Shown piece by piece: positions 2,287 through 36,076 of a stretch of DNA of 39,222 nt. The DNA lies in assembly GCA_000826855.1 (NCBI GenBank), contig JTLS01000217.1, positions 1 through 39,222 of the forward strand, given 5' to 3'. This DNA is from Basidioascus undulatus. Taxonomy: Eukaryota. Position numbers and translations under genes: made by a program. The notes beneath the pieces were generated by a model that saw nothing but the letters and a program-made list of their open reading frames with translations, made no database searches and was not told the DNA's origin. Position 1 is the first letter of the stretch. Each line of letters begins with the position of its first letter.

Positions 2287-3388
2287 TGTGGAACGGGCGG
2301 AGGCGGGCTTGACGTTTGTTCGCCATCGGAAATAGGACAGCCGGGTTGTACATGGAATCCTGCAGTTTCGTGCTGCTTCTGCGAGTGAGGTTTTGATTCT
2401 GGTTCTGTAAAACTCAATACCCTTAGAAGAAGCCTGAAGTGCATGCCAGACAATGCAGTGGAGTGAAAGGCCCAGAGAGGGCCAGGGCCTTTTCTTACGT
2501 GTCTGCCTCGCACAGTAGTGCCAGTAGGTCGAATGCGAGACAGCGTCCTTTATAGTACATATGCTTCCTCATATTGTGCACATTACAGTTTACCATACAG
2601 TATTCTCCCCTGCCCTTGCAGTATTCAAGCCACTGTGAGGGGGAATTCAAGCGCACATACGACCAAGGGATGCAGCTTCGACATCGTCACGTCACTGCCA
2701 CTATCGTAGAGCAGAACACTGCCGTGCTCATTTCTCGGCTTTTGTGACTATCAGTGAAAGATTGCTATTGCTGCATACACGGCATGCAGCTCCATCTTGC
2801 GTAGGAAAGTGATCGACTGTGGAGGCGGAGCTTTTCAAGCAAGTTGGCAGGGCATGCTAGCGGCAGTCCGCCTCACCTCGGGTAGGCCGAACAATCATTC
2901 AATGCGAAAAATGTGTTCGAGCTTATACAAGATCTTCCACACACCCACCTGGTCGAAAGTCTTGAGGATTGTTGCACTCGAGCTGCCCCAGCGCCTCGAC
3001 GCGTACGGCGGCCGCATCTCGGTACCGGTCCCGCCCACATTGCGTCATTCAAGCTGGGATGAATTATCAAGTCAAGAGATCACTCTCGGCACTCCTTCGC
3101 TACCATACTCTTCGGAAGACGGGCTCGACCGACCAGAATTAATGTGCCGCACACGAGCAGCCGTACTTTTTTGAGCGTCTGCACATCATTAGCGAGCACC
3201 GCGTGTATTCATCATTACCACCTCCCGCTCGAGCGAAAGACGATTTCTTGACTTCGACTTGCGCCTCTTCCTCTCCTCCCATCTCTCTCCATCTCGGTTG
3301 CACCAACGCCTCTCATCTAGGACTTTACCCTCTATATTCCACTTATACCCCTCCATTACAACATTCCCTCCGCTTCCCCCCATCGATC

Positions 3389-4469
3389 ATGAGTTCGCAG
3401 AAGCACCTCTTCACGCTCACCGACCGCCCTGCCGAGTCCGTCCCGAGCCCGGACGACCCCGCGTACCACGACTGGCTCTCGTCCGAATTCGCCGCCGCGG
3501 CCGACCTCCTCTCCGAATCCGAAACCTGGCCGGTCAACCACACTCGAACCGAAGACGGCATCGACTTCATCGTACGCACCGCGCCGGCGCGCAAGAACCT
3601 AGGCGAGAGGCGCTCGTGGACCCTGCGCGAGAGCCTCCATGACGACGTGAGCTTCGAGCTCTTCGAGAGCACCAGCGGGGCGAAGCTGCATGAGAAGCAG
3701 GGCCAGTGGGACGAGAGCTTGATGGGCGCGGACAGGATCAGGGCGATTCAGGAAGGCCGGGCTGAAGGTGAGTGTCGTCCCGCTTTTCGGAAGGACGAGA
3801 GCGATGAAGCTGAGGTTGTGGTCTTGTGCAGTATGGCACAAAAAGATACGGGTACCGTAAGTGGAGGCCTCATCAACTCACATACGGGCGGCGTGGCTTA
3901 CCTTAAAACTCCCAACAGTCGCTCCTCCAACCGCGACTTTGCGTGCCTTCTCGTCACGGGCGAAAGCGAGTCCTCTCCTTCCACCCCCGTCACGCCCGAC
4001 TCCTCCGCGGCCTCAGTTGAAGACCGCCTTCGTTGCCTTATCGTCGTGACCCACCCGTACGAGCACCCGAACGAAAAGGGATTCACCCGCGGACGGTACG
4101 AGTCGATCGAGGTAGGTTTCGCTGCGTCTCCTCAAGCGATGGAGAGATAACGGTGCTTATTCCATGTCTAAGCTTACAGGAAATCAGGGAGGTCATGAAG
4201 GATGACCAGAAAGTCGTGATGTGGCGCTCGCTGCTTGCGAACGATCCCGGAGGGTTCGCGCCAGCCAAGATCGTCGACCGGCTGATCCCTTCCCAGGTGT
4301 GCTCATTTTCTCATTGCTCACCTGTACTTACCGGAACATATCGCTCACCGCCCCCCCTCAGCTCTGCTCGGACGGCGCTCGCTTCCTGAAGTTCGCCAAG
4401 GAATGGGACCAGAAACGACGGGCCGCCGGCAGCGAGGACAAGGCGGTGAATGGGAATGGTCAGGCTTGA
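3389..4469 (+). CDS. DUF3074 / START-like (SRPBCC fold) protein, about 5 exons
   Basis: Spliced product contains WTLRESLH, VWHKKIRVPRSSNRDFACLLV, KGFTRGRYESIE-EIRE, VMWRSLLANDPGGFAP, DGARFLKF, matching the recalled fungal DUF3074 pattern; GT-AG introns 3768-3831, 3857-3918 and two more downstream. Confidence 0.75.
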
Positions 4470-4884: not shown

Positions 4885-7357
4885 ATGCGGCGCGCTCTGA
4901 CCTCGTTCGCAGGGCTCGCCTTAGCGGCGTCTGCCGCGGCGTTCACCGTCGACATCTCGGACGCGGACGACATGCGCCAGGCGTGTTCGGGCATGTGGGG
5001 CGGCAAGAACGCCGAGATCTCGGTCGTCTTCGATGAGGGTGCGAAGGGGCAGGTCGCCGTAGGTATGTCCATCTCCTGAGTATCATGAGAGGATGTAGCC
5101 GTGTCGGCAAGGAGCTGATCTGGGATCTGTGCGGGCTCGGCGGGACAGCGATCTGGGAGTGGTCGGATATGAAGTACCTTGGCAAGCCTACGCCGGGGCA
5201 GCACACTGAGGAGTTCCCCGTAAGTCTCGAGTTCAGCTATTGGAGATACTTAGAGCGCTGAGCGGATGTTGGGCCCGTCCTCGTCATCTAGAAAACCTAC
5301 GTCTGCACCACCACCGCTTTCCGATCCAATCCGCCTCTCTGCACGTCCGACGAGCTCGGGCAGTTCATCGTCGACCTGCCCGAGGGCAAGTCCATCAACT
5401 CCACGAGCATATGGACAACCGCGGCGCGCTTCAGCGACGTAGACGTCGGGACGGAGAACGGCGGCGAGGCTGCGGGCGCGGTGGAGGACGATGCGGGCAG
5501 CAGCTCGGGCACGGGCACGCGCAATGGGCGGCTCAAGGAGGTCACTCCGGCCGGCGGCGAGGAAGATGACGAGGTTGAGGCTGGCGTTCCAGACGAGGAG
5601 GAGGAGGAGGAGCGCCGCATCGTCCGTCGTCAGGTCCTGCAGCCGAACCGTACGTGCTTCAGGTCGCAATCTGGTCTAGCATTTCAATCGCTGATCCATT
5701 TGCGGATCCTACATAGCCGGACCTTTCACGTACCCTGCGAAGAAGTCGGGCTACTACTGCGTGGGCACGGGTGGGTAGCCTGCCTCTTCGGCGATCGGTT
5801 TCAGCGGCGTGCTGACCTGGGAGGAACAACCAGTTCCGATAACCGTCGTGACCCCCGCCATCGACGCGTCCCAGGCGCACGGCTCGTTCACCGGCTCGGT
5901 TTACTTCAATGACCAGAGCGGGGGAGAGCTTCCCGCGAGCGAGGTTCCGCTTCTCGGCGTACGCACTTGGCGTGTCCTTGGCTTTGGGGATATGCACGCA
6001 TGCTGACTTTGCCCTCTTCACAGTTTTACGCTGCCATGAGCTGGATCTACGTCATGCTCGCTGCCGGGTGGGGCTTCCTCTGCTGGCGGAACAGGGACGA
6101 GCTGCTGCGTATTCAGGTCCCTGCATTGCTTCTTGCGGACACTCAGGCCCGAGCTGATCGTCTTCTCCGACCAATAGCACTACGTCACCGGTCTTCTCGT
6201 CTTCCTCATCCTCGAGAACTTCCTCAACTGGGGTGTGTCTTCCTCGATTGAGCTTTCTAGACAGGATCTGAAATCCCCTTCCAGGATACTACCACTACCT
6301 CTCCGTCACGCCGCCGTCCGCCTCGCCGGTGGTCTCCACGCTTCTCCTGGCCCTGACCGCGCTCGCCTCGGCCTTGCGTTCCTCGGCGTCCTTCTTCCTG
6401 CTCCTGACCATCTCGCTCGGCCTCGCGGTCGTCCGCCCCTCGCTCGACCCCACGACGATGAAGCGCGTCGTGATCCTCACTGCGGCGCACGCGCTCTTCG
6501 GCGTCGTATACGCCATCGGGACCGTCCTCGTCCGACTTGAGGAGGCAGCGATCTTCCTCCTGCTGCTCATGATTCTGCCGCTGGCGTTCACGCTCTCGGC
6601 GTTCCTGCTTTGGACGCTGTACTCGCTCAACGGCGAGTTTCTTGGTTCTTCCGTCGGATCCTCAAAACACGTGGCTGAATGCTATGTTATGCTTCAGGCA
6701 CGATCGCGCATCTCGAGCTGCGTCGGCAAAAGTTCAAGGTTGGGTGAGCTGAAGGCCTGCTTCTGCCGACTCTTCGAGCACGTCTGATCACAGTTCTCCA
6801 CCTTCAGCATGTACAAGAAGGTCTACCGAATCCTGATGGGCGCTGTCATCATCATCGCGGGCTTTTTCATACTTTCCACCTTCTCATTCTCCAACCGCTT
6901 CGACGACAACTTTGCGCCCTCGAATTGGAAATGGCGGTGGTTCCTGCTCGACGGGTGGCTCGGCCTGCTCTATCTTGCCGTACTCGTCTCGATCGCGTAC
7001 CTCTGGCGTCCGTCTCCGCAAAATGCGCGTCTGGCGCTCTCGGACGAGCTCGCAACGGACGAGGACGAAGCGAACGAGTTCGACCTCGCCGAGCGCGGGA
7101 ACGCTCAGAGCCCGACGCAGGACGGCGGCGACCGCCGGCAGCCGCCGCCGCGGTACGAGCACGACGAACTCCCAGCGGACGAGACGGTGTTTGCGCTCGA
7201 CGACGAGGACGAGGACACCGCTGCGGACCTGGACCGGGAGCTGGAGCGGCACAAGGAGGGGCTGGGCGAGCGCGCGACGGGCAGTCGGGGCGAGGAGGGC
7301 GAGCGGCTGTTGGGCAGAAGTAGGAGCCCGAGTCCCGATGGGAAGAAGCGAGATTGA
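4885..7357 (+). CDS. PTM1: PTM1 / lung seven-transmembrane receptor (LUSTR, GPR107/TMEM87-like) Golgi membrane protein
   Basis: Signal peptide MRRALTSFAGLALAASAAA, then RQACSGMWGG, KSGYYCVGT, GELPASE, RSSASFFLLLTISLGLAVVRPSL, WKWRWFLLDGWLGLLY, AYLWRPSPQN and an acidic tail; about 10 introns including GC-AG 6633-6697. Confidence 0.9.
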
Positions 7358-23133: not shown

Positions 23134-24201
23134 TCAAACGGGGGGAAGGACCACAGTCGGAATCACGGGCGTAGGGATGAAAGTCCCACCAACACCACCG
23201 ACTCCAAGACCGCCTTTGTCCCACAATACTTTAATCAGTGGGTACCGAGAGCCTTGCAATGATTAAAATTGCTTACCTTGAGCACCTCCGCCAACACCAA
23301 GACCTGTCCGGTCCACAACGTAAGCAGTCGCTTTCATGGTCACTCGCAAATCAAAGTTTTTCACCTCCCGCACCGCCGAGTGTGCCTGTTCCTCCCACGC
23401 CCGTACCACCTTAACAGAATTATGGGTCAGCTAATCCGGGCATCCCAAAAATCCACCAACCGTGCAGGTAGACCACTTAGCCGTGCAGCTGCTCCACGAG
23501 CTCGCTGTGCATCACACTCCAGCGCACTCTCCAGCACAACTGCTCACCTGCGGCCCCGCCACCAATGCCGGTACCACCTGCGAGCAATATATTTTAGTTT
23601 TTTCTCACACACGGAGAAGCTCCTAGTCGTATAAGTGCAAGCCTAGAGCGGCACTTGACTGACCAGCGAAGGGGTTAAAGCCACCCGGGGGGATGCCTCC
23701 GGGAAAGCCCGCTGCTGTCCCCCCGGCACCTCCCACCCCGGCACCGCCCACGGCTACACCTAGATGAATGAAGAAGAAGAAGAAAAGGATATCAGCTTGT
23801 CGGGCCAGTGTAAACCCGGTGTACGCGGTCTCACCTCCCACGCCCGCCCCTCCGGTACTGCCAGGCCCCTGCAATGACAAGTCATTCAGCATGGAGAATA
23901 TGTGAAACTCCTAAAAGAGGCTGAAAGCAGTCTTACGGCACCCGTACCGCCAACGCCTAAAGGGTTGCAGCGACTCGCTCAGGTACGCAGCTAGCGGAGC
24001 AAGGGCGTCTGTGACATGATCGACGTACCTGTACCGCCCGCAGCGCCTCCGCCAATCCCCGTTCCTGAACAAGGATGGTCATGAGGGTAGGTTCTTTGAG
24101 AATGCAAATCATAAGATAACCTCCTCACCTCCCTGCGGCAGCGGGGCAGCGAAAGCAACGACGCAGGCGGCGAGGAGGAAGATGATCTTGACTGTGACCA
24201 T
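23134..24201 (-). CDS. secreted glycine-rich protein (146 aa) encoded by 9 small exons
   Basis: Exons 24201-24129, 24064-24029, 23956-23937, 23868-23835, 23759-23664, 23577-23548, 23409-23365, 23303-23277, 23213-23134; all GT-AG and phase-consistent; signal peptide MVTVKIIFLLAACVVAFA-APLPQ; not captured by the ORF track. Confidence 0.8.
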
Positions 24202-25155
24202 GGTTTGAGCCTCTCTGATGGATACAAGGACTTGATTGTAAGGGGGAACTACGGACCAGAACGTCGAGATCCTTATATCTGCTGACCGTCTGTTTCGGCA
24301 ACATCAGCCTCCAGACGCTTCCCGGGAAAGGTTAGCGGAAGCTTTGGCGGTGGATTCTAAGTCACGATGCAAGATGAAAGACACGGGAAAGAAAGTTGAG
24401 CAATAAGTAGTCCAGGAATATTGTGCACGCTTTGATGGTTGTGGTCGGAGGGAAAGAGGCACGGGCGAGTCACAAGAACGAACTGGAGCCGAGCAACAGC
24501 CGACTCAGCCGACACAGTGCCATTAGTTTTCGCCCTTCACTCGATAATGGACCACAAGTCGCTTGGGACGGAAATTTTCTGCCATTATCACGTAATCAAT
24601 GGTTTGCCGACGAAAAGGCAAGCTCGTTTACACTCCACGAAGCAGTAATCTGAAGACGCCATCAGGTCTCCTCCGTCAAGTCTTTTCTCAGAGTGCGTTT
24701 GCACCGCATGGCGGATTTTTGGGTATTAAAAAGCTCGTATAGTGGAGTATAGCTGACTGATGAATGCTGCATTGTCAGCATCTATATTCTACTCAAAATT
24801 GGCTGGCTTACTAACGTGGCCACAACAGCCCCTTTTCGCTATTGGACTCACTCGATGGCCGAAAAGACCCCTCAATTTCCTTCCTGAAATTTTATTGATG
24901 TTTAATTGTATCACAAATCCTCTGATCTGTAGTCAAGAGTGTTCCGCGTTCTGCAATGCCTGCAAACTGTCATCGCTGATTGTCGCTGACACGAATCCGT
25001 TGAACGAATGGAAAGTTGTCTACTTATCATCGGTAAAAGCATTAAGAGTAAACAAAAATCAAGGAGATTCTTTCCTTGGAAAAAGGATAAACATTGTAAT
25101 TGCGAGCTCTTCGCTACGAGACTCGCACAAAGCACTCTTCGACCGCCATGAACTC

Positions 25156-25530
25156 CTACATGTCCGCCACGACCGCTGTGGTATTTCCGCCATTTCCCCC
25201 CAGACCCGGACCTCCTTCCGCGGGTCCTCCAATCCCCTGTCCGGCGTTGGCCGTTCCGATTATAGCGATGGCCGTTCCGCCTGTGGTAGAAAAGGGCCNG
25301 GGGGGGGGGGGGGGGGGATGGTTAGTCCTTCCTTTCTTACCAAAGCACACAGAGACACACATACCCCTTCCGTCACCCCCTCGAGCAAATCCACCAACGC
25401 CCGGGCCCCCGTTCGCAGACTGGATAATCTGGCTCAGGTCCATGTCCTGGACTTGGGGTACCAGTGCTGTGTGCGCCGGCAGGGCGAAGCAGACGGTGAA
25501 GAGGATGGCCGTGAACGCAGGGGCAAGCAT
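25156..25530 (-). CDS. small secreted glycine-rich protein (about 96 aa)
   Basis: Signal peptide MLAPAFTAILFTVCFA-LP; intron 25281-25364 (GTATGT..ACTAAC..CAG); mature region ANGGPGVGGFARGGDGRGGTAIAIIGTANAGQGIGGPAEGGPGLGGNGG. Confidence 0.75.
   Translation of the reverse strand: MLAPAFTAILFTVCFALPAHTALVPQVQDMDLSQIIQSANGGPGVGGFARGGDGRGMCVSVCFGKKGRTNHPPPPPPXPFSTTGGTAIAIIGTANAGQGIGGPAEGGPGLGGNGGNTTAVVADM
25299..25317. repeat. poly-G homopolymer with an N (assembly ambiguity) inside an intron
   Basis: n at 25299 followed by about 18 G. Confidence 0.9.
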
Positions 25531-26249
25531 GGCGAAACGGGGGGATGGTACAGAATCAAGAGGAGAAACGGGAGTCTAGTACATGATTGGTGTGGCCGGA
25601 CGATATAGGCGCTTCATCCACAAACAGACCAGGTGGCTCAACGCTCAGAATGGCTGGATATGAGGGGCAGTGCCCTGAAAAGGCTTGTCGCTTGAACGCC
25701 ATCCAGCGAAGGCATCTTGTCTACTTTCATTCGAGTAAACACTTCTCCACGAAAAAATTGAATTCCTCTGCACTGAATGGGAAATTCACGGGCAAAAGGC
25801 ACGCGTACACAGCATGGCGCAACGATGTGGTACCGACGGGGGCAAAGTGTTGCTGCTTGGTCAAAAACACTTTCATTCCGAGGTTTCAGAATTCATAATC
25901 ATGGGCTGCCATGCTTCAAGGTCTGCATGGCCCGCTGCCGGCATTCAGAGACTGCAATTGGAAAGCACAACAACATCGACGGTGCCGTTGGGCTGTCCGC
26001 GTCGGAGATCCACTGACATGTAGACTAGTAGGTTCCCAGAACGAAGACCAACGAAGACAAGACCTTGGGACCGCATAATCCCGCGATGTCTGGACTAGCT
26101 CTCTGGATTTTAGGATGTTCACCGCAAGTGAAACTGCCAGGAAAAATCCGTTGAAAGCTATTTGGCTCGCACTGCAGCTGAGCTTAGCCGGGGACGTACT
26201 TACATCTTCCATCCACGTACAGCTACGCCTTCGAAGACCGGCGGCAATC

Positions 26250-27400: not shown

Positions 27401-28422
27401 ATGACATTCCAAATATCTAACGTTTTCATATCTTACCCCACCTTCTTTGTACTGCTGGCTATCGGCTGCATCGCCGGGGCTCTCATCTGGGCCGTCAAGG
27501 ACTACCGATCCTTCATCGCTTTCGGTACGTCGTGGACTGCCTCGCCTCAGTGATGAACCCCTCCCCCATTCGAGATCCCACTAAAAGATCTGTTCCCTAA
27601 ACACAGGCACAGGCGGTATCTCCCCCGACCTACACGGATGGTGGCTGGTCACCTCCCTTCGCATCTGGCTGGTCGCCTCGCGGGCGGACCTGAAGGACGT
27701 GCGGGCGTTGGAATCGAGCCGGGATGCGAGGGGCTTCTTGGGCGGACAATTGAAGGACAGGGGGAGAGAACGTCCCCGTTTGGCTGGGAGGTATGCAAAT
27801 CATTAATTTATGCCTCGCCAGATAGCGCTGCTGACAACCGCCCTGTAGGCCACTCCCGCAGCGGCAGATCACGACGTCCAGTCTGCAGCCGTTGAACAGC
27901 CAACTCGAAGCGGCACGTCGCTATCTCCTGCCCCTCGGATCAGAACTATTTCTGAATAGTTCTTCCTTTCCTAAGTCCCTCCTCGCGCTCCTCCCCGCAC
28001 TCGTCGCCGCCCACCCGCACCTCCTCCACCTTGCGCCCTCCTCCGAGCGTTCCTCCCTCGGGCTCTACGCCACCCCCTCGCCCTTCACCTCCTCCCCCGC
28101 CTCCACCACAGACTTTGCATTCATGAAGGGCGAGATCGCCCACGTGCACGGACACGACCGCTCGCTGCACGTCGTCCTCAGCCCGAAGGACGCGGCGGAG
28201 GTGATCAACCGCGGGTGGGGGGTGCGGTTCCCGATGGCTGGCTGGGGCGGGGAGAGGATCGGCGTCACGCTGGTTTATATGCCTGAGAGCGAGGAGGTGC
28301 GTTGAAGAACTGTGAGAGAGTAGACGGTGCTAACGAAACAGTGGCACGGGCAGGACCTCAAAGTCGTCCAGGCCATCGTCAAGGCGGGAGTAGCGTGGAT
28401 GACCGGCACAGTGGTCGCTTGA
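27401..28422 (+). CDS. fungal luciferase (Luz)-like / DUF5519 domain protein with N-terminal TM helix
   Basis: TM helix, then KDYRSFIAFGTGG, ERPRLAGRPLPQRQ, GEIAHVHGHDRSLHVVLSPKDAAEVINRGWGVRFPMAG, TLVYMPESEEDLKVVQAIVKAGVAWMTG; four introns. Confidence 0.85.
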
Positions 28423-28561: not shown

Positions 28562-31323
28562 TCATGACCGCCTAGCATCCACAATCAATACGTCCTTCAC
28601 CTTCACCTTCTCCTTCTCCTTCTCTTCCTGCGCCCCTAGTTCCCCTCCTCCCGCACCATCCTTCTGCTCCGACCTCTTCTGTCCTCCCGCCGTCGTCCCC
28701 AGGCCCTCCGACTTCTCCCCCATCCCGCTCTGGCTCTCCTTGACCCCACCAGCATTCCCGCCCTGCGGCTCCGCAGCCAGCCCAGGCGCAGCCGGCTCGG
28801 CCTTCGCTGCCTCCGCCTCCACGCCGGCGCCCGCACCCGCACCCGCGATAGGCGGGGGAGGCGGCCAGACGAGCGTGCCGGCCTTCCACCGGCTCTGGCA
28901 GCGATTGCACATGAGGCACCCGTCCGGCCCGCGCCGCCATGAGGGGGTCTCCTGCGTGCCTAAACCCACATAGCCCCACATCTCAGCCTCATCAACCGGC
29001 TGACCGCAGTAGTACGTGAAGAGAAGGACAGACGACGACGTACCGCATGCGACGCACACCTTCCTCGTCCCATCCGGAAGCACATTATTAACGACCTTGC
29101 GCTTCTTCGTCTTTGTCTTCTTCTCCGCAGCGGGGGAGTCGAGCACTGCGAGCGCGGACGCGGACGCGGACGCCTTGCGCTTCTTGGACGTCGACGGCGC
29201 GGGGGTCTGCGCGGCCGCTGGGGCGGGGGAGGTGGAGGACGCGGACGAGGCGGCGCGCCGGTGCGCGGAGAGCGGGACGGTCCGGATCTGTGTTGGGGCA
29301 GGTGTTGTCGGGGTGGGCGCCCCCGACGCGGCGGGGAGGGCCTTGTGCAGCGGTCGAGGGGCGAAGCGGTCTGTGAAGATCTGTTGCGGGAGCTGTGCGT
29401 TAGGTTGGGACGATGTGGGATGGGAGCAATGGGAAGACATAGACGTACGTCTTCGAGATGCGATGGGAGCGGCTCGTCGACTGGGATGCGATAATGGAGG
29501 AAACCGCGGGGTGGGACGTGCTTGGCCTATCGCATACCGCATACCACCTTCGTATCAGCCTGCGCTTCGTCCACCCCGCGAAACCTCGGCAAAAAGCGCA
29601 CCAGCTCCCTCAGCTCCTCCTTCCTCTTCGCGACGTCCACGCCAATGCTCGCGCGCTCAAACGCGGCCCACAGCGTCGTCGGGCAGCCCGTCAAGCGGAG
29701 CGTGACGGGGTGCACGGGCGGATGCGCCGACTGTGGGGGCGGCGCGGCAGGGGTCTTCTTCTTGGTGTCGGTCGCCGGAGTCGGCGTGGCGGTGGTGGGG
29801 TCGGTGATGGAGGTGGAAGGAGGGATGGGAAAGAGGAAGGAGCCCTTTAAGGGAACGAAGAACGATAGACGGATCTCGGGGAATGCGGGAGTGCCGTGCC
29901 GCGAGGCGATGATTCTGTCCATCGGGAGGATCCAGCTGTCCAACGAGAAAAAGGTTATGAATCATCAGTCAAAGCTTCACCGGCGGGCGGAATGCAGATG
30001 AGGAGAGACGCAACCGGTCTTGCGGGTTGTCCCGGAACTCGATGACCACTGCGCTAGGCGTGCGGACTGGCTTCGGCGGGAACGCGGGGAAGGATGAGGG
30101 AAATGCGTTGGGCAGAGACGGCGTGGCGGAGGAGGTAGAAGGTAATGGTGTAGCGGTCGGAGCGGCGGTGGCGGAGGAAGACGGGCCGGGCGCAGCAGGC
30201 GCAGGCGTGCGGGGGAGATTCGGCGGTGGCAATTTCGAGGAGGACGCCGCCGGCGTAGATGCAGCAGTGGGTGCGGTAGGTTTGGACGGCGTCGAAGCCG
30301 CCCCGGGGGTAGAGGATGTGGAAGCTGTCGACCTGGGGGCGGCGGGGGAGGAGGAAACCGATGGAGGGCGGGCGACCGATGGGGACGGAGAGGCGGCAGC
30401 GGCGATAGATGGGCCTAGAGTAGAAGGTTCAGCAGTCGGCGCCGGCTTGGGCGCTGCGGCTTTGATCGCGGCGATCCATGCCCCGAGCGCCTTAAGCTGG
30501 TCGGACGTCGCCTTGCCCGCTGCTGCGAGCTGCAGGACTTGGCCGAGGAGCGGGTTGAGGGCGGCGGCGGCGTTCACCTGATGAAGGAGCTTGATAATTG
30601 AGATGACTTTTGAAGGAGCGGAGGGAAGGGTTGAGAAGAAAGACACACCTGAGCGACCAGGTGAGCATCGACCGTCGTGGAGCTCGGCGCGGGCGGCGGC
30701 CTAGGCGCGGACACCGGCGGTGGTGCTGGCGTCTGCGGCATAGGCCTCGGAGTCGAGACGGCCCTAGGCGCCGGCGACGCCTTTGCCTTTTCTTTCTCCT
30801 TCCCCTTCTTCTTTGCCCCTCCCGCGGCCGCCCCGCCGACCGGCCCCGCCGTCTCGACCCACTTGACCTCGAACAACTTGGTCTCGCCAAACACGTGCGG
30901 GCCGACGTCGATATCGACCTTGCCGAGGGGTACGATCGTGTGCGGGGGCTGGACGATCTCCTGAGCGTTCTTTGCGCGCGAGCGGGTGGAGAACTTGGGG
31001 AAGAGGGAGGTGAGGTATGTCTGGCGGGACTGGCGGAGGGACTGGGCGAGGACGAGGCTGGGGGGAGTCGCGTTCTCAACACATGTCTTCCAAGAAAACA
31101 ATGAGACAGCAAGAGCGCACCTCTGTTCGATTGTACGCAGCTGGCGGTGTGTCTTTACCCTGTCCTCCTCGCCTTCGACCTCGGCGGGGAGGACGACGGG
31201 CTCGGCGAGCTCCTCCCAGTCACCGGGGGGCTGCGGCGCGGTCCCCATGGGGAGATCGACCCGCCGCGGGAGGTCGTTTACGTTGGCGCGCCGTGACTGG
31301 TTCGCCGGCGTCGACGTGGACAT
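28562..31323 (-). CDS. Swc3-like (SWR1 complex) protein with C-terminal GATA-type zinc finger
   Basis: LAQSLRQSRQTYL..FPKF, LGKVDIDVGPHVF, VVIEFRDNPQDRWILP, HPVTLRL resemble Swc3-like segments; spliced finger CVACGTQETPSWRRGPDGCLMCNRC (C-x2-C-x17-C-x2-C); internal exon structure partly uncertain. Confidence 0.65.
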
Positions 31324-32063: not shown

Positions 32064-35000
32064 ATGGTCAGCAGGTCGAACCTCGCTCTCAGCCCGTCCA
32101 AGCTGCACCTCCTCGACAGGGACCAGGTGCAGCCCGTCGGGATGAGCAGTCCGCCGTCTTTTCCCTATCTGTCTCCCAAGTCGGTGAGTAGCTTTTGATG
32201 AACCGTGCTCGGGGCGAAAAGGGTACTCACAGTTTATCTTCGTTCTGGCACGCAGCGTCGCGAGTCGCCGCCCAGCATCTCGACGTCGTCTTCGCTCGTT
32301 TCGCTTAGCGTGTCCGAGAAGGTACCTCGCCCCTCGAGAAAATTCTGACCCTTATTCCCTAATACTCCATTAAATTTCCTCCTATTTACACAGTACCACA
32401 TCTCTCCCGACCCTGCTTTCTGGGGCAGCACGACAGAAGGTCCCGAACCCGACGACCACTTGCAGTGAGCATTTTCTTTCGCCCGCTCTTCAGGAAGCAT
32501 CCGCCGAATTTCTGATCACCATAACACCAGTCTACCCGACCCAAAACGCGACGCCCGGCGCGACCTCGCCCGCGACTTCTTCACCAAGCGCGGCATCCAG
32601 AACGTCGGCTGCCTGGCAATCCTCGTCCTCCTCCTCATCGCGCTCTTGTCCGTCCCATCCCCCCTCCACTCATCAGCCCCCAGCTCACCTTCTCCCCTTC
32701 CAGTGCTGTTTACCCTCTTCTCTCGTACCCCTCTCTCTCCTTCCGCTTCCTTCCTCCGCTCACCAGCCCCGCCCCCACAGCTATTTCGTCCGCCCCTCTC
32801 CCAACACTCTCGGCGGGTACGGTCTGGGAGGGATCAACGGGACCGGCCAAGTGCCCGACCTCCCCTTTGGGCTGATCGACCCCGATACGCCCGCCGAGGC
32901 GCTCAGGCGCACGGGGTTTGATGGGAGGGAAATGGAGCTGGTTTTCTCCGACGAATTTGAGGTTGAGGGGAGGAGCTTCTATAAGGGGGACGACCCGTAC
33001 TGGGAGGCAGAGGATATTCACTACTGGCAAGTACGCCTGCTTCGAAACTTTCGTCTCTTTGGTTGGGGGAAGAATATCGTGAGCTGATTCGGGGCCGGGG
33101 ACGTGCGCTCAGACATCCAACCTGGAGTGGTACGTCTTCTGGGCTGCCGTTCAGCTTTCTGCGCTTGACTCCTGACTTTGATGGACACCGAAGGTATGAT
33201 CCCCGACAGATAACGACCACCGAGGGCAAGCTAGCCATCACGCTCTCCGACACCCCGAGCCACGGCCTCAACTACACTGGCGGGCTGCTCATGTCGTGGA
33301 ACAAGTGCGATGCACAGTCTCCGTCCGCCTACTGGTCTCCAGCTTTCTGACCTTCGGAAAACCTGGTGGATCTAGGTTCTGCTTTACCGGAGGCTATCTT
33401 AGCGGTACGGTCGTCACTGCCCCCTCGAGTTGAGGCAGCGGTTGCTGAAAGCGAGGCTGTTCCCCTGCGCAGCGTCCATCTCTCTTCCTGGTCATCCAGA
33501 CGTTGCTGGACTTTGGCCAGCCTTCTGGAGCCGTCCGTTTCCATTTAATTTTGAACTACCATTAGGTTCTTAACGCCTCTTTCGTCTACAGTAGGTAACC
33601 TGGGCCGAGCGGGCTACGGCGCAACACTTGAGGGAATGTCAGTCCTTTCCGCGCTTTCCTTCGACACACCGGAGCTGACATTCGCTTGACTTCAGGTGGC
33701 CGTATGTTTACGGGGACAGGTGCTGTATTGACGCCGAATTCATTTATCCTTACCCCTCTGCGTAGATACACGTACGACTCGTGCGATGTCGGGGTCAGTT
33801 TCCCGTTCATTGGTCTTGAGCACGGTCCTTACCACGCCCCACCTGCAGACACTCCCGAATCAGACCCTGGACGGTACGTTTTCGTATTCCTCTGATCAAC
33901 CCTCACCCTTCGCTGAATGTTCCCTTCCTCCCCGCAGGCAAGCCCGAGGTCGCCCTCACTTCCGGCAAGATCTACAGCGACTACGAGCTGTACGTCTGCG
34001 TCTTCCGAGCCTGTTCCATTCTCTCCCAAATTTCACACCCATTGGTTTTCTTCATACACAGATCGTACCTCCCCGGCCAGCGTCTCTCGCGCTGCACATG
34101 CGACGACCCCGAGTCTTTCCACCCCGGTCCAAAGGACGCCAACGGCGACTACGTAGGGCGCGGAGCGCCTGAAATCGACGGTAGGTCTTGAGTGATACGA
34201 GGGAAGCACGTCCTCAAGCTCATCTTTGGGTGAGGGATAGTCCTCGAGGCGACGGTCGAGCAGAATCTTCGGCTCGGACAACTCAGCCAGAGCGGGCAAT
34301 GGGTGCGTTGTCGAACTAGGAAATTGCTTGGGGTCTTGCACCCTGACGGGCCTGGGGAAAGCGCAGGCACCCTTCAATGCGTACTATGAGGTGTGTCCAT
34401 GTCTGTTTCCGTACAGGCGGAAGGACAGCAAGAGAGCCTTTGACACGCGATTAATCGCAGTGGACCAACACCTCCGAAACGTACACGCTTCATGACGAGG
34501 ACTACGAATGGCCTACGCACCTCAACGAATACACGGGTCAGTAGTGATCTCGTGGTTCTCACCATGCCTTAACCCTGATACAAACCTTTGAGGAGAATTT
34601 AGGTGGCGAGTTCCAGCAAGCGTCCTCGGGCATCGCAAGTTTTCTTTCCATCGACCCGCTCCAGCGATACTGACGCCAGACGGTTCCCAAGGCCACTGCG
34701 AACCAATCCTGCTACAGCGGAGCCAATCCCACCCCATCGTCAGGCTGTTACTCTGAGGTTCGCCTCTTTTCCCCTTCCGATGAGCCTTCGTTCTCTGAAA
34801 AGCCCTTGCCCACAGTACGGCTTCGAATACGTTACCGGACCAGACGGTTACATCGTGCCCCCTTTCCCCACTTAATAGACGTGTATTGAAATGGTATTGA
34901 TGTCAGCATCTGCTAGGGCTGGGTTGCGGACGGTCGCCGGACGTGGACGGTCAAGGCTGCTGGCCTGGGACCGGACCCACGCGTGGAGATCGACACGCGT

Positions 35001-36076
35001 CCAATCCCGACTGAGCCTATGGTAACTCTTTGGATTACAACAAATAGTGTTTTCTGTTTTAACCTGTTCGCTTACCTTCGCAGTATATGTGAGTCAAATG
35101 TTCAGGCAAAGAAATCGTGCGCTCCAAAACCGCTGACCGTCTACCCGCGATGGTCGCGATACAGAATCTTGAGTGAGCCTTCATTGGCCATAAGGGCAAT
35201 ATGTGTGCGACTGGGGCTTACTGTGATTTCCTTGGTAGACTTGGGCATCTCTCCTAGTGCGTCCTCGCCGGTGGTTGTTTGTCTTGTTTCCGTGATTTGA
35301 TCTTGCTGACAGGCTTTGCGCCGCAGAGTACGCAGCCTGTCAAAGCTTTTACTGAAGGGGTCCACTTGAACCCATGCTTTTCCACCTCAGGTTCGGATAT
35401 ATCAACTGGGACGAGCTGTCCTGGTGAGCTGCCGTGTTCTTCGAAGCGTGTTTCAGAGCGCTGACTTGGTCTTGCGGCAGGCCGGCGGTCATGTACGTGG
35501 ACGTGAGTCACAAACCCACTTCCCTTGTTGTAAAAGGACCAAAGTCTAATGATGCTGTTTTCCACTGTGGCCTTTGAAGTGGGTGCGAGGTGCGTGGTAG
35601 CCTCCGACGAAACTACGTGGCTGCTAGCTAAGCACCGTTACGAGCTGAAAGCGTCCCCTGGGCCTGCAGTATACCAGCCAGTGTATTTACCCTTATTTCT
35701 GCTTTGATTAGCAAAATTAAACTAACGGGTCTAAATGCAGTGACGCCAAAAACATCGGCTGCGACCCGCCTGATCGCCCGACTGCGGCATACATTGAGCG
35801 ATTCCCAGAAGGTGCGCAATACTCGAGTGCTTACCCAACTGCTCGTTCATAGAACTAACAGGTTCTATAACTAGCATACATCAATCCCAACCTCACCACA
35901 TGGGTCAGTTCGAGTTTACTTGCCTACCCCGCGGAGACTGACACGGAAGGGAACGCAGGTTAACGATTACGGACTGGCGTTCCCCAGTACGTAACAGGGG
36001 TTTGGATAGGCTGTCTGAAGTTACGGAACACTGAGATTGTTCTCCTCCAGAAAACAGACTGGTCGACGACTGCTAG
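32064..36076 (+). CDS. KRE6: KRE6/SKN1-family GH16 beta-glucan synthesis-associated type II membrane protein, about 35 exons
   Basis: [17 protein letters not shown] + [82 protein letters not shown] (catalytic EIDxxE), EPMYIILNLG, IGCDP, FPKNRLVDDC*. Confidence 0.93.

Follow-up and report, generated by a model that had tools for sequence, protein, structure and literature searches.

Tropoelastin, lamprin, the micro-exon genes (MEGs) of schistosomes, the snow-flea antifreeze protein, the class I glycine-rich wall proteins of plants and SsGsr1 of the fungus Sclerotinia sclerotiorum are the described systems with which a gene of Basidioascus undulatus can be compared. The gene, here called gene 1, lies in a stretch of 39,222 nucleotides (nt) (assembly GCA_000826855.1, contig JTLS01000217.1, positions 1 to 39,222 of the forward strand; hereafter the window), and is very probably, as judged from its sequence, a genuine fungal gene whose product would be small, secreted, uncharged and built of glycine-rich repeats. 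An earlier reading of the same DNA, made without database searches (the sequence-only reading), had taken it for a micro-exon cassette gene. This cassette look is best explained by the placement of introns in Gly codons together with an ancient internal duplication.

Comparison with described systems

The exons of tropoelastin have phase-1 borders and are removable in frame. In gene 1, the exon borders are likewise phase 1 and split codons, and exons can be removed in frame; its product is also uncharged, rich in Gly, Ala, Val and Pro, and made of pentapeptide-type repeats. The heptad GGLGVGG is present in exon 30, a hydrophobic exon, of human elastin (bioRxiv 10.64898/2026.08.28.747957). However, gene 1 encodes no Lys/Ala cross-linking domains and no Lys in the mature protein, so that tropoelastin's alternation of hydrophobic and cross-linking domains is not seen. 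Its product would have about 128 residues against about 700, its introns are tiny and it is fungal; the likeness is one of kind, not of homology.

Lamprin genes, going by the title of a report by Robson and colleagues in 2000, are said to be multi-copy and alternatively spliced. Lamprin itself, a protein of lamprey cartilage (formerly Pfam PF06403), is described as a hydrophobic, self-aggregating matrix protein with GGLGY-type tandem pentapeptides (PMC3023805). The gene 1 product shares the hydrophobic tandem pentapeptides but has no Tyr and hence no GGLGY unit, and comes from another kingdom; convergence of composition is the most that could be claimed. No match to the Pfam Lamprin family was found among the gene 1 fragments, the presence of that model in the scanned copy of Pfam being unconfirmed.

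Schistosome MEGs are reported to have exons of 3-81 bp, introns of up to 5 kb and documented isoforms (PMC10526429, PMC10399815). Gene 1 resembles them in its secreted, hydrophobic, low-complexity product and in its very short symmetric internal exons between longer first and last exons, whereas its introns are of 61-138 nt and it belongs to a generally intron-dense genome. In the snow-flea antifreeze protein, Gly occurs at every third residue and disulfides are present. Small size, secretion, about 45% Gly and the heptad GGTGVGG are common to this protein and the gene 1 product, but the latter has a period of five instead of Gly at every third residue, and its mature part is free of Cys.

Plant class I glycine-rich proteins consist of (GGX)n, often with Tyr, and their genes have one intron. 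Like the gene 1 product, these proteins have a signal peptide ahead of a long stretch of Gly-rich repeats; in gene 1, however, the unit is GGxGx with a period of five and not three, (GGX)n and Tyr are missing and there are eight introns. The plant proteins have been suggested as wall scaffolds (PMC10269696). The same source provides the nearest fungal case met in the literature on glycine-rich secreted proteins, SsGsr1 of S. sclerotiorum, a secreted wall protein that needs its glycine-rich tandem repeats to function (PMC10269696). SsGsr1 is described as having 11-residue repeats that are identical at the DNA level, minisatellite-like and variable in number, as well as a Ser-rich region and a glycosylphosphatidylinositol (GPI) anchor (PMC10269696). 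In contrast, the repeats of gene 1 have a period of five or ten and are old at synonymous sites, and its product contains a single Ser.

Other classes of repeat or wall protein were ruled out. Collagen-like (GXY)n is incompatible with the period of five and with the GG and GGG runs of the gene 1 product; the RTX nonapeptide (GGxGxDxUx) requires Asp at position 6, and the product has no Asp; hydrophobins have eight Cys, and the only Cys here is inside the signal peptide. PE_PGRS proteins combine a PE domain with GGA/GGN repeats, and were rejected in view of the eukaryotic signal peptide, the spliceosomal introns and the fungal context.

Structure of gene 1 and its product

Gene 1: 23134..24201, minus strand; start codon ATG 24201-24199, stop codon TGA 23136-23134; predicted secreted glycine-rich repeat protein of 146 residues
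Exon 1: 24201-24129, minus strand; 73 nt; signal-peptide-like N-terminus (residues 1-18) and beginning of the first repeat
Exon 2: 24064-24029, minus strand; 36 nt, phase 1-1
Exon 3: 23956-23937, minus strand; 20 nt, phase 1-0; the smallest of the nine
Exon 4: 23868-23835, minus strand; 34 nt, phase 0-1
Exon 5: 23759-23664, minus strand; 96 nt, phase 1-1; closes the first half-repeat and carries the Pro/Phe-rich linker of 18 residues
Exon 6: 23577-23548, minus strand; 30 nt, phase 1-1; coextensive with one decapeptide unit
Exon 7: 23409-23365, minus strand; 45 nt, phase 1-1
Exon 8: 23303-23277, minus strand; 27 nt, phase 1-1
Exon 9: 23213-23134, minus strand; 80 nt; final decapeptide unit, hydrophobic Pro/Thr/Val/Ile tail of 16 residues, and stop
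Intron 4: 23760..23834, minus strand; 75 nt; the sole intron of gene 1 that is stop-free and in frame if retained, which would add 25 residues
TATA-like element (TATAAG): 24272..24277, minus strand; 71-76 nt upstream of the ATG at 24201; promoter role putative

The model was rebuilt from coordinates alone and comprises, on the minus strand from 24201 to 23134, nine exons with a 441-nt coding sequence of 146 codons and a terminal TGA. The eight introns (64, 72, 68, 75, 86, 138, 61 and 63 nt) all begin with GT and end with AG, and a CTRAY-like branch motif, read by eye, lies 14-37 nt 5' of the acceptor in most of them; splicing in vivo would be expected to follow these borders. Their phases are 1, 1, 0, 1, 1, 1, 1 and 1, and a G|GN codon is split by each of the seven phase-1 introns. 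The nine-exon spliced model, the phases and the exon lengths of the sequence-only reading were thus reproduced, and the rest of its description also agreed wherever it could be checked. Five of the seven internal exons (36, 96, 30, 45 and 27 nt) are symmetric and the 20+34 pair also adds up to a multiple of three, which bears out the earlier statement that they could all be removed in frame.

Several other features suit the same strand and frame. The exons have a GC content of 0.68 against 0.40-0.58 in the introns, and read-through translation of each intron showed that retention would bring an in-frame stop in seven of the eight. The start codon, in the context CAAACC-ATG-G, is the first in-frame ATG downstream of a stop. 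On the plus strand opposite gene 1 there is no alternative gene, the frames being broken or featureless, and the splice signals suit the minus strand only.

The product contains 58 Gly among its 146 residues and one Ser, is also rich in Ala, Val, Thr and Pro, and has no Asp, Glu, Arg, His or Tyr. Its sole Lys (residue 5) and sole Cys (residue 13) are both within the signal peptide, leaving a mature part that is uncharged and Cys-free, as had been stated before. The signal peptide has an AxA-type site after residue 18, with Ala at both -3 and -1. When all ATG codons on both strands of the window were put through a strict screen for a hydrophobic N-terminus, four starts passed, namely 24201, 25530 (the start of a neighbouring gene described below) and two of one membrane-like open reading frame (ORF) near 6809. 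We infer that the product is secreted, with a mature length of about 128 residues.

The signal peptide leads into a 45-residue block of nine pentapeptides, which the 18-residue Pro/Phe-rich linker joins to a second block, of 44 residues, and the product ends in the 16-residue tail. Eight GG[TAL]G[IV]GG units, the number given in the sequence-only reading, start at residues 24, 34, 49, 59, 87, 97, 111 and 121 and form four pairs with a spacing of ten residues, and thus four 20-residue modules. Gly recurs with a period of five: its autocorrelation reaches 0.276 at lag 5, against 0.158 at lag 10 and 0.105 at lag 3. A degenerate DNA motif for the unit matched six times in the 39-kb window, five times within gene 1; shuffled sequences would be expected to give 0.05 matches, and none of 100 shuffles attained six.

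At the DNA level, Tandem Repeats Finder reported one repeat only, of 15 nt x 2.1 at 23721-23751 in exon 5, equal to one pentapeptide period; gene 1 is therefore not a young minisatellite. The 2P+G value of the product is 0.63-0.65. A line for elastomeric proteins was reportedly drawn at about 0.6 by Rauscher and colleagues in 2006, and because the value lies above this line the product is grouped with elastomer-like rather than amyloid-like sequences.

The duplicated 19-residue peptide

Copy 1 of the 19-residue repeat: 23940..24132, minus strand; codons 24-42, with introns 1 and 2 inside
Copy 2 of the 19-residue repeat: 23384..23664, minus strand; codons 87-105, with introns 5 and 6 inside

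The two halves of the repeat region, residues 24-68 and 87-130, align end to end, with 19 identical residues followed by a diverged stretch. The identical part is the longest exact peptide repeat in the product (residues 24-42 and 87-105). Its two DNA copies share 41 of 57 nt and differ in 16 of 19 codons, and each of the 16 differences is in a third position and synonymous. The probability that 16 random differences would all land on the 19 third positions is P=1.7e-11. Further, three codons are identical between the copies, whereas 5.6 would be expected if synonymous codons were chosen at random according to the codon usage of gene 1.

Since no more codons are identical than random choice would leave, and no residue differs, the duplication is old enough for its synonymous sites to be saturated, and the peptide has been kept. 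Because the copies differ only synonymously at saturated sites, the frame of gene 1 has been translated and selected. Selection, on this evidence, is acting on the exact peptide, and this is the strongest argument that the gene is real. Together with the screen for hydrophobic N-termini, it upholds the proposal that the locus encodes a signal-peptide-bearing protein of the GGxGxGG type.

A duplicated peptide with different intron positions had also been noted in the sequence-only reading, and the copies do differ in this respect, with introns at codons 25 and 37 in the first and at codons 87 and 97 in the second. Over the whole first half, introns fall at codons 25, 37, 43/44 and 55, and over the second half at 87, 97, 112 and 121, which correspond to 24, 34, 50 and 59. 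Each half thus has four introns in a similar order, offset by 1-6 codons between the halves. No similarity above that of shuffled sequences was found between any introns within gene 1.

Searches for relatives

Homology queries were unspliced contiguous fragments of gene 1, with which even an identical full product would score just 41.6 bits, so that only near-identical proteins were detectable. A 68-residue query spanning exon 4, intron 4 and exon 5 gave 2987 candidates among longer proteins, none at E<=1, and no match at E<=0.001 among 1.84 billion representatives. A 42-residue query from the last exon gave 13 candidates, none at E<=10. The exon-5 peptide had no usable match in the ESM Atlas, the sequences of the PDB gave one chance-level match to gene 1 fragments (mannitol dehydrogenase, E=0.87), and none of five fragments of 25-68 residues matched a Pfam family at E<=10. 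Thus, no near-identical protein was found for the gene 1 fragments, as far as these insensitive searches reach.

Metagenomes were scanned by motif. The linker motif found no locus. The repeat motif matched one locus (L001, 40-705, plus strand), an AT-rich, intron-less ORF of bacterial type with long Gly runs, which was rejected as a relative; we take it to resemble the bacterial ALK/LTK-type glycine-rich domains. A full-text search of the literature for the four heptads gave no match concerning fungi.

Explanations of the locus

As a whole, the locus is best explained by a normally spliced gene for a self-associating wall or surface protein whose micro-exons are a by-product, a reading to which we would give a little better than an even chance. 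The protein would carry a cleavable signal peptide followed by two ancient homologous blocks of 44-45 residues, each made of nine GGxG-hydrophobic pentapeptides. By analogy, it would most likely associate with itself and serve the hyphal wall or extracellular matrix as a structural or surface component, and it may act through repeats that are hydrophobic, of low complexity and rich in turns, much as do the hydrophobic domains of elastin, lamprin and plant glycine-rich wall proteins. As to the exons, phase-1 proto-splice sites are reported to correspond to GGN codons (PMC1626468). In a GGN-rich frame, introns settling at AG|G proto-splice sites would then nearly all be phase 1 and would leave in-frame micro-exons as a by-product, and the internal duplication would subsequently have copied a block with its introns.

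Some points weigh against this explanation. The case for gene 1 is built on its sequence. Because of the offsets of 1-6 codons, simple co-inheritance of the introns with the duplication is insufficient, and intron sliding or separate gains are needed. A disordered elastomer that depends on composition alone would not require a letter-perfect 19-mer, which may point to a particular fold or partner. In addition, the mature protein has neither the Lys nor the Tyr that elastin, lamprin and plant glycine-rich proteins use for cross-links, nor any Cys for that purpose, and a GPI signal might be formed by its C-terminal tail, though this contains five Pro.

It is unlikely, though worth keeping in view, that the product is a small secreted effector directed at a host or competitor, or an elicitor shed by the wall, as compared with SsGsr1 of Sclerotinia. 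The protein is small, secreted by prediction, repetitive and without a Pfam domain, and its gene lies beside a second small gene of secreted type, within some 8 kb poor in Pfam domains. The glycine-rich tandem repeats of SsGsr1 are reported to be required for the induction of plant cell death (PMC10269696). However, the internal repeat of gene 1 is ancient and conserved rather than fast-evolving, and neither the 11-residue repeat nor the Ser-rich region of SsGsr1 is found in the product.

The sequence-only reading had instead seen the symmetric micro-exons as cassettes, skipped in varying combinations so that the secreted proteins differ in length, on the model of tropoelastin and schistosome MEGs. 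The in-frame removability of five internal exons and of the 20+34 pair agrees with this proposal, as do the coincidence of exon 6 with one decapeptide unit, the match of exon borders to unit borders in the second half and the in-frame retention of intron 4. But the exons are symmetric because of the intron phase, which in turn is what AG|G sites in a Gly-rich frame predict: the spliced coding sequence has 14 AG|G sites, 13 of them in phase 1, and six of the eight junctions are AG|G. In addition, exon skipping is the rarest type of alternative splicing in fungi, making up 3% of events in 23 species, against 61% for intron retention (PMC3925392), and 0.5-2.5% by a second account (PMC10282164).

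The introns of gene 1, at 61-138 nt, fit intron definition, whereas those of schistosome MEGs extend to 5 kb (PMC10526429). Intron definition would favour retention, and in gene 1 only the retention of intron 4 stays in frame. The genome is also intron-dense. A nearby SKN1/KRE6 gene is divided into at least six coding pieces, each covering 20-58 profile positions (32860-35030 of the window, plus strand), at about half the intron density of gene 1; the intron density of gene 1 is high but not exceptional for the genome. Given the phase of the AG|G sites, the intron density and the rarity of exon skipping in fungi, the cassette claim was not sustained, and combinatorial skipping in gene 1 seems to us quite improbable.

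A compact glycine-built fold with an ice-binding or other flat binding surface, either a polyglycine-II bundle of the snow-flea type or a solenoid in which every coil is one 20-residue module, is likewise doubtful. In its favour, exact conservation of 19 residues implies a constraint on the sequence itself, the heptad GGTGVGG is common to the product and the snow-flea protein (PMC6271921), and each 20-residue module equals four pentapeptides. The period of Gly, which is five and not three (0.276 at lag 5 against 0.105 at lag 3), argues against the snow-flea bundle, and the polyglycine-II and ice-binding analogy drawn in the sequence-only reading is not borne out. There is no Cys for disulfides of the snow-flea type, and the register is broken by linkers of 5, 18 and 4 residues; the failure of the fragments to match any PDB sequence or Pfam family is weak evidence in the same direction.

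A bolder proposal would join these ideas. The 19-residue module, unchanged in every letter over fully randomised codons, may mark a new family of fungal secreted proteins whose fold is defined and built of glycine, such as a solenoid that has a 20-residue module in each coil, and the layout of one exon per decapeptide in the second half may be a trace of growth by exon duplication that still varies protein length through exon skipping or retention of intron 4; we consider this combination a long shot. Lastly, a non-functional gene 1, as a dead gene or a frame that happens to be spliceable across G-rich simple sequence, fits the failure of unspliced-fragment queries to find a homologue or annotated product, but is highly improbable given the synonymous-only differences between the 19-residue copies (P=1.7e-11), eight of eight canonical junctions in an intact frame, a signal peptide directly at the first in-frame ATG and no tandem array in the DNA besides the 15-nt x 2.1 repeat.

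Gene 2 and the surrounding window

Gene 2: 25156..25530, minus strand; exon 1 25530-25365, intron 25364-25281, exon 2 25280-25156, stop codon 25158-25156; 96 residues
DUF3074 domain: 3143-4147, plus strand; Pfam match
Luciferase domain (PF17648): 27835-28302, plus strand; Pfam match, E=3.8e-16
GATA finger: 28565-29554, minus strand; Pfam match
SKN1/KRE6 (beta-glucan synthesis): from 32374, plus strand; Pfam match

A second gene lies 1.3 kb upstream of gene 1 on the same strand and has a signal-peptide-like start at the ATG at 25530. Its predicted product of 96 residues contains 22 Gly and GGPG[VL]GG units; unlike that of gene 1, it has charged residues. The single intron of 84 nt (GTATGT..CTAAC..CAG) is again phase 1 in a Gly codon, and as it is free of stops in frame, an unspliced reading of 124 codons is also open. 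The similarity between the products of genes 1 and 2 exceeds what composition would give, since the score of the mature parts was reached by none of 2000 shuffles and that of the Gly-rich cores by three of 2000. Comparison of the flanks of the two genes gave no promoter or 3' similarity above shuffles. By their sequences, genes 1 and 2 fit a small local family.

Within the intron of gene 2, an 18-base homopolymer (25300-25317) stands beside a single N at 25299, which probably reflects uncertainty of the assembly. A plus-strand ORF of 283 codons (24757-25605), antisense to gene 2 and its flanks, has no Pfam domain and no relatives, and is probably spurious.

Around gene 1, about 8 kb contain no Pfam domain. 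Beyond this stretch, the matches to DUF3074, the GATA finger, SKN1/KRE6 and the Luciferase domain place gene 1 in a fungal context, and the Atlas clusters into which the KRE6 piece falls are predominantly from Basidiomycota, so that the fungus is probably a basidiomycete. PF17648 is presumably the fungal luciferase family; no other domains of a bioluminescence cluster were seen among the ORFs of the window that were scanned. Another ORF, at 6809-7357 on the plus strand, has a strongly hydrophobic N-terminus and more hydrophobic stretches without a Pfam match, and looks like a membrane protein.

Significance

If confirmed, gene 1 and its neighbouring relative would add a secreted, uncharged, pentapeptide-repeat protein to the small secreted proteins of basidiomycetes that are not of the cysteine type, which are poorly known. 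The biological value of the gene would grow only with a defined fold or real isoforms. For genome scans, it serves as an example of how intron placement alone can yield cassette-like symmetric exons in a glycine-rich frame, and phase-1 symmetry in Gly-rich genes should accordingly not be taken as evidence of alternative splicing. It is also an example of a low-complexity repeat under strict selection for its exact sequence, the most notable point being a 19-residue peptide that has been kept while its synonymous sites became saturated.

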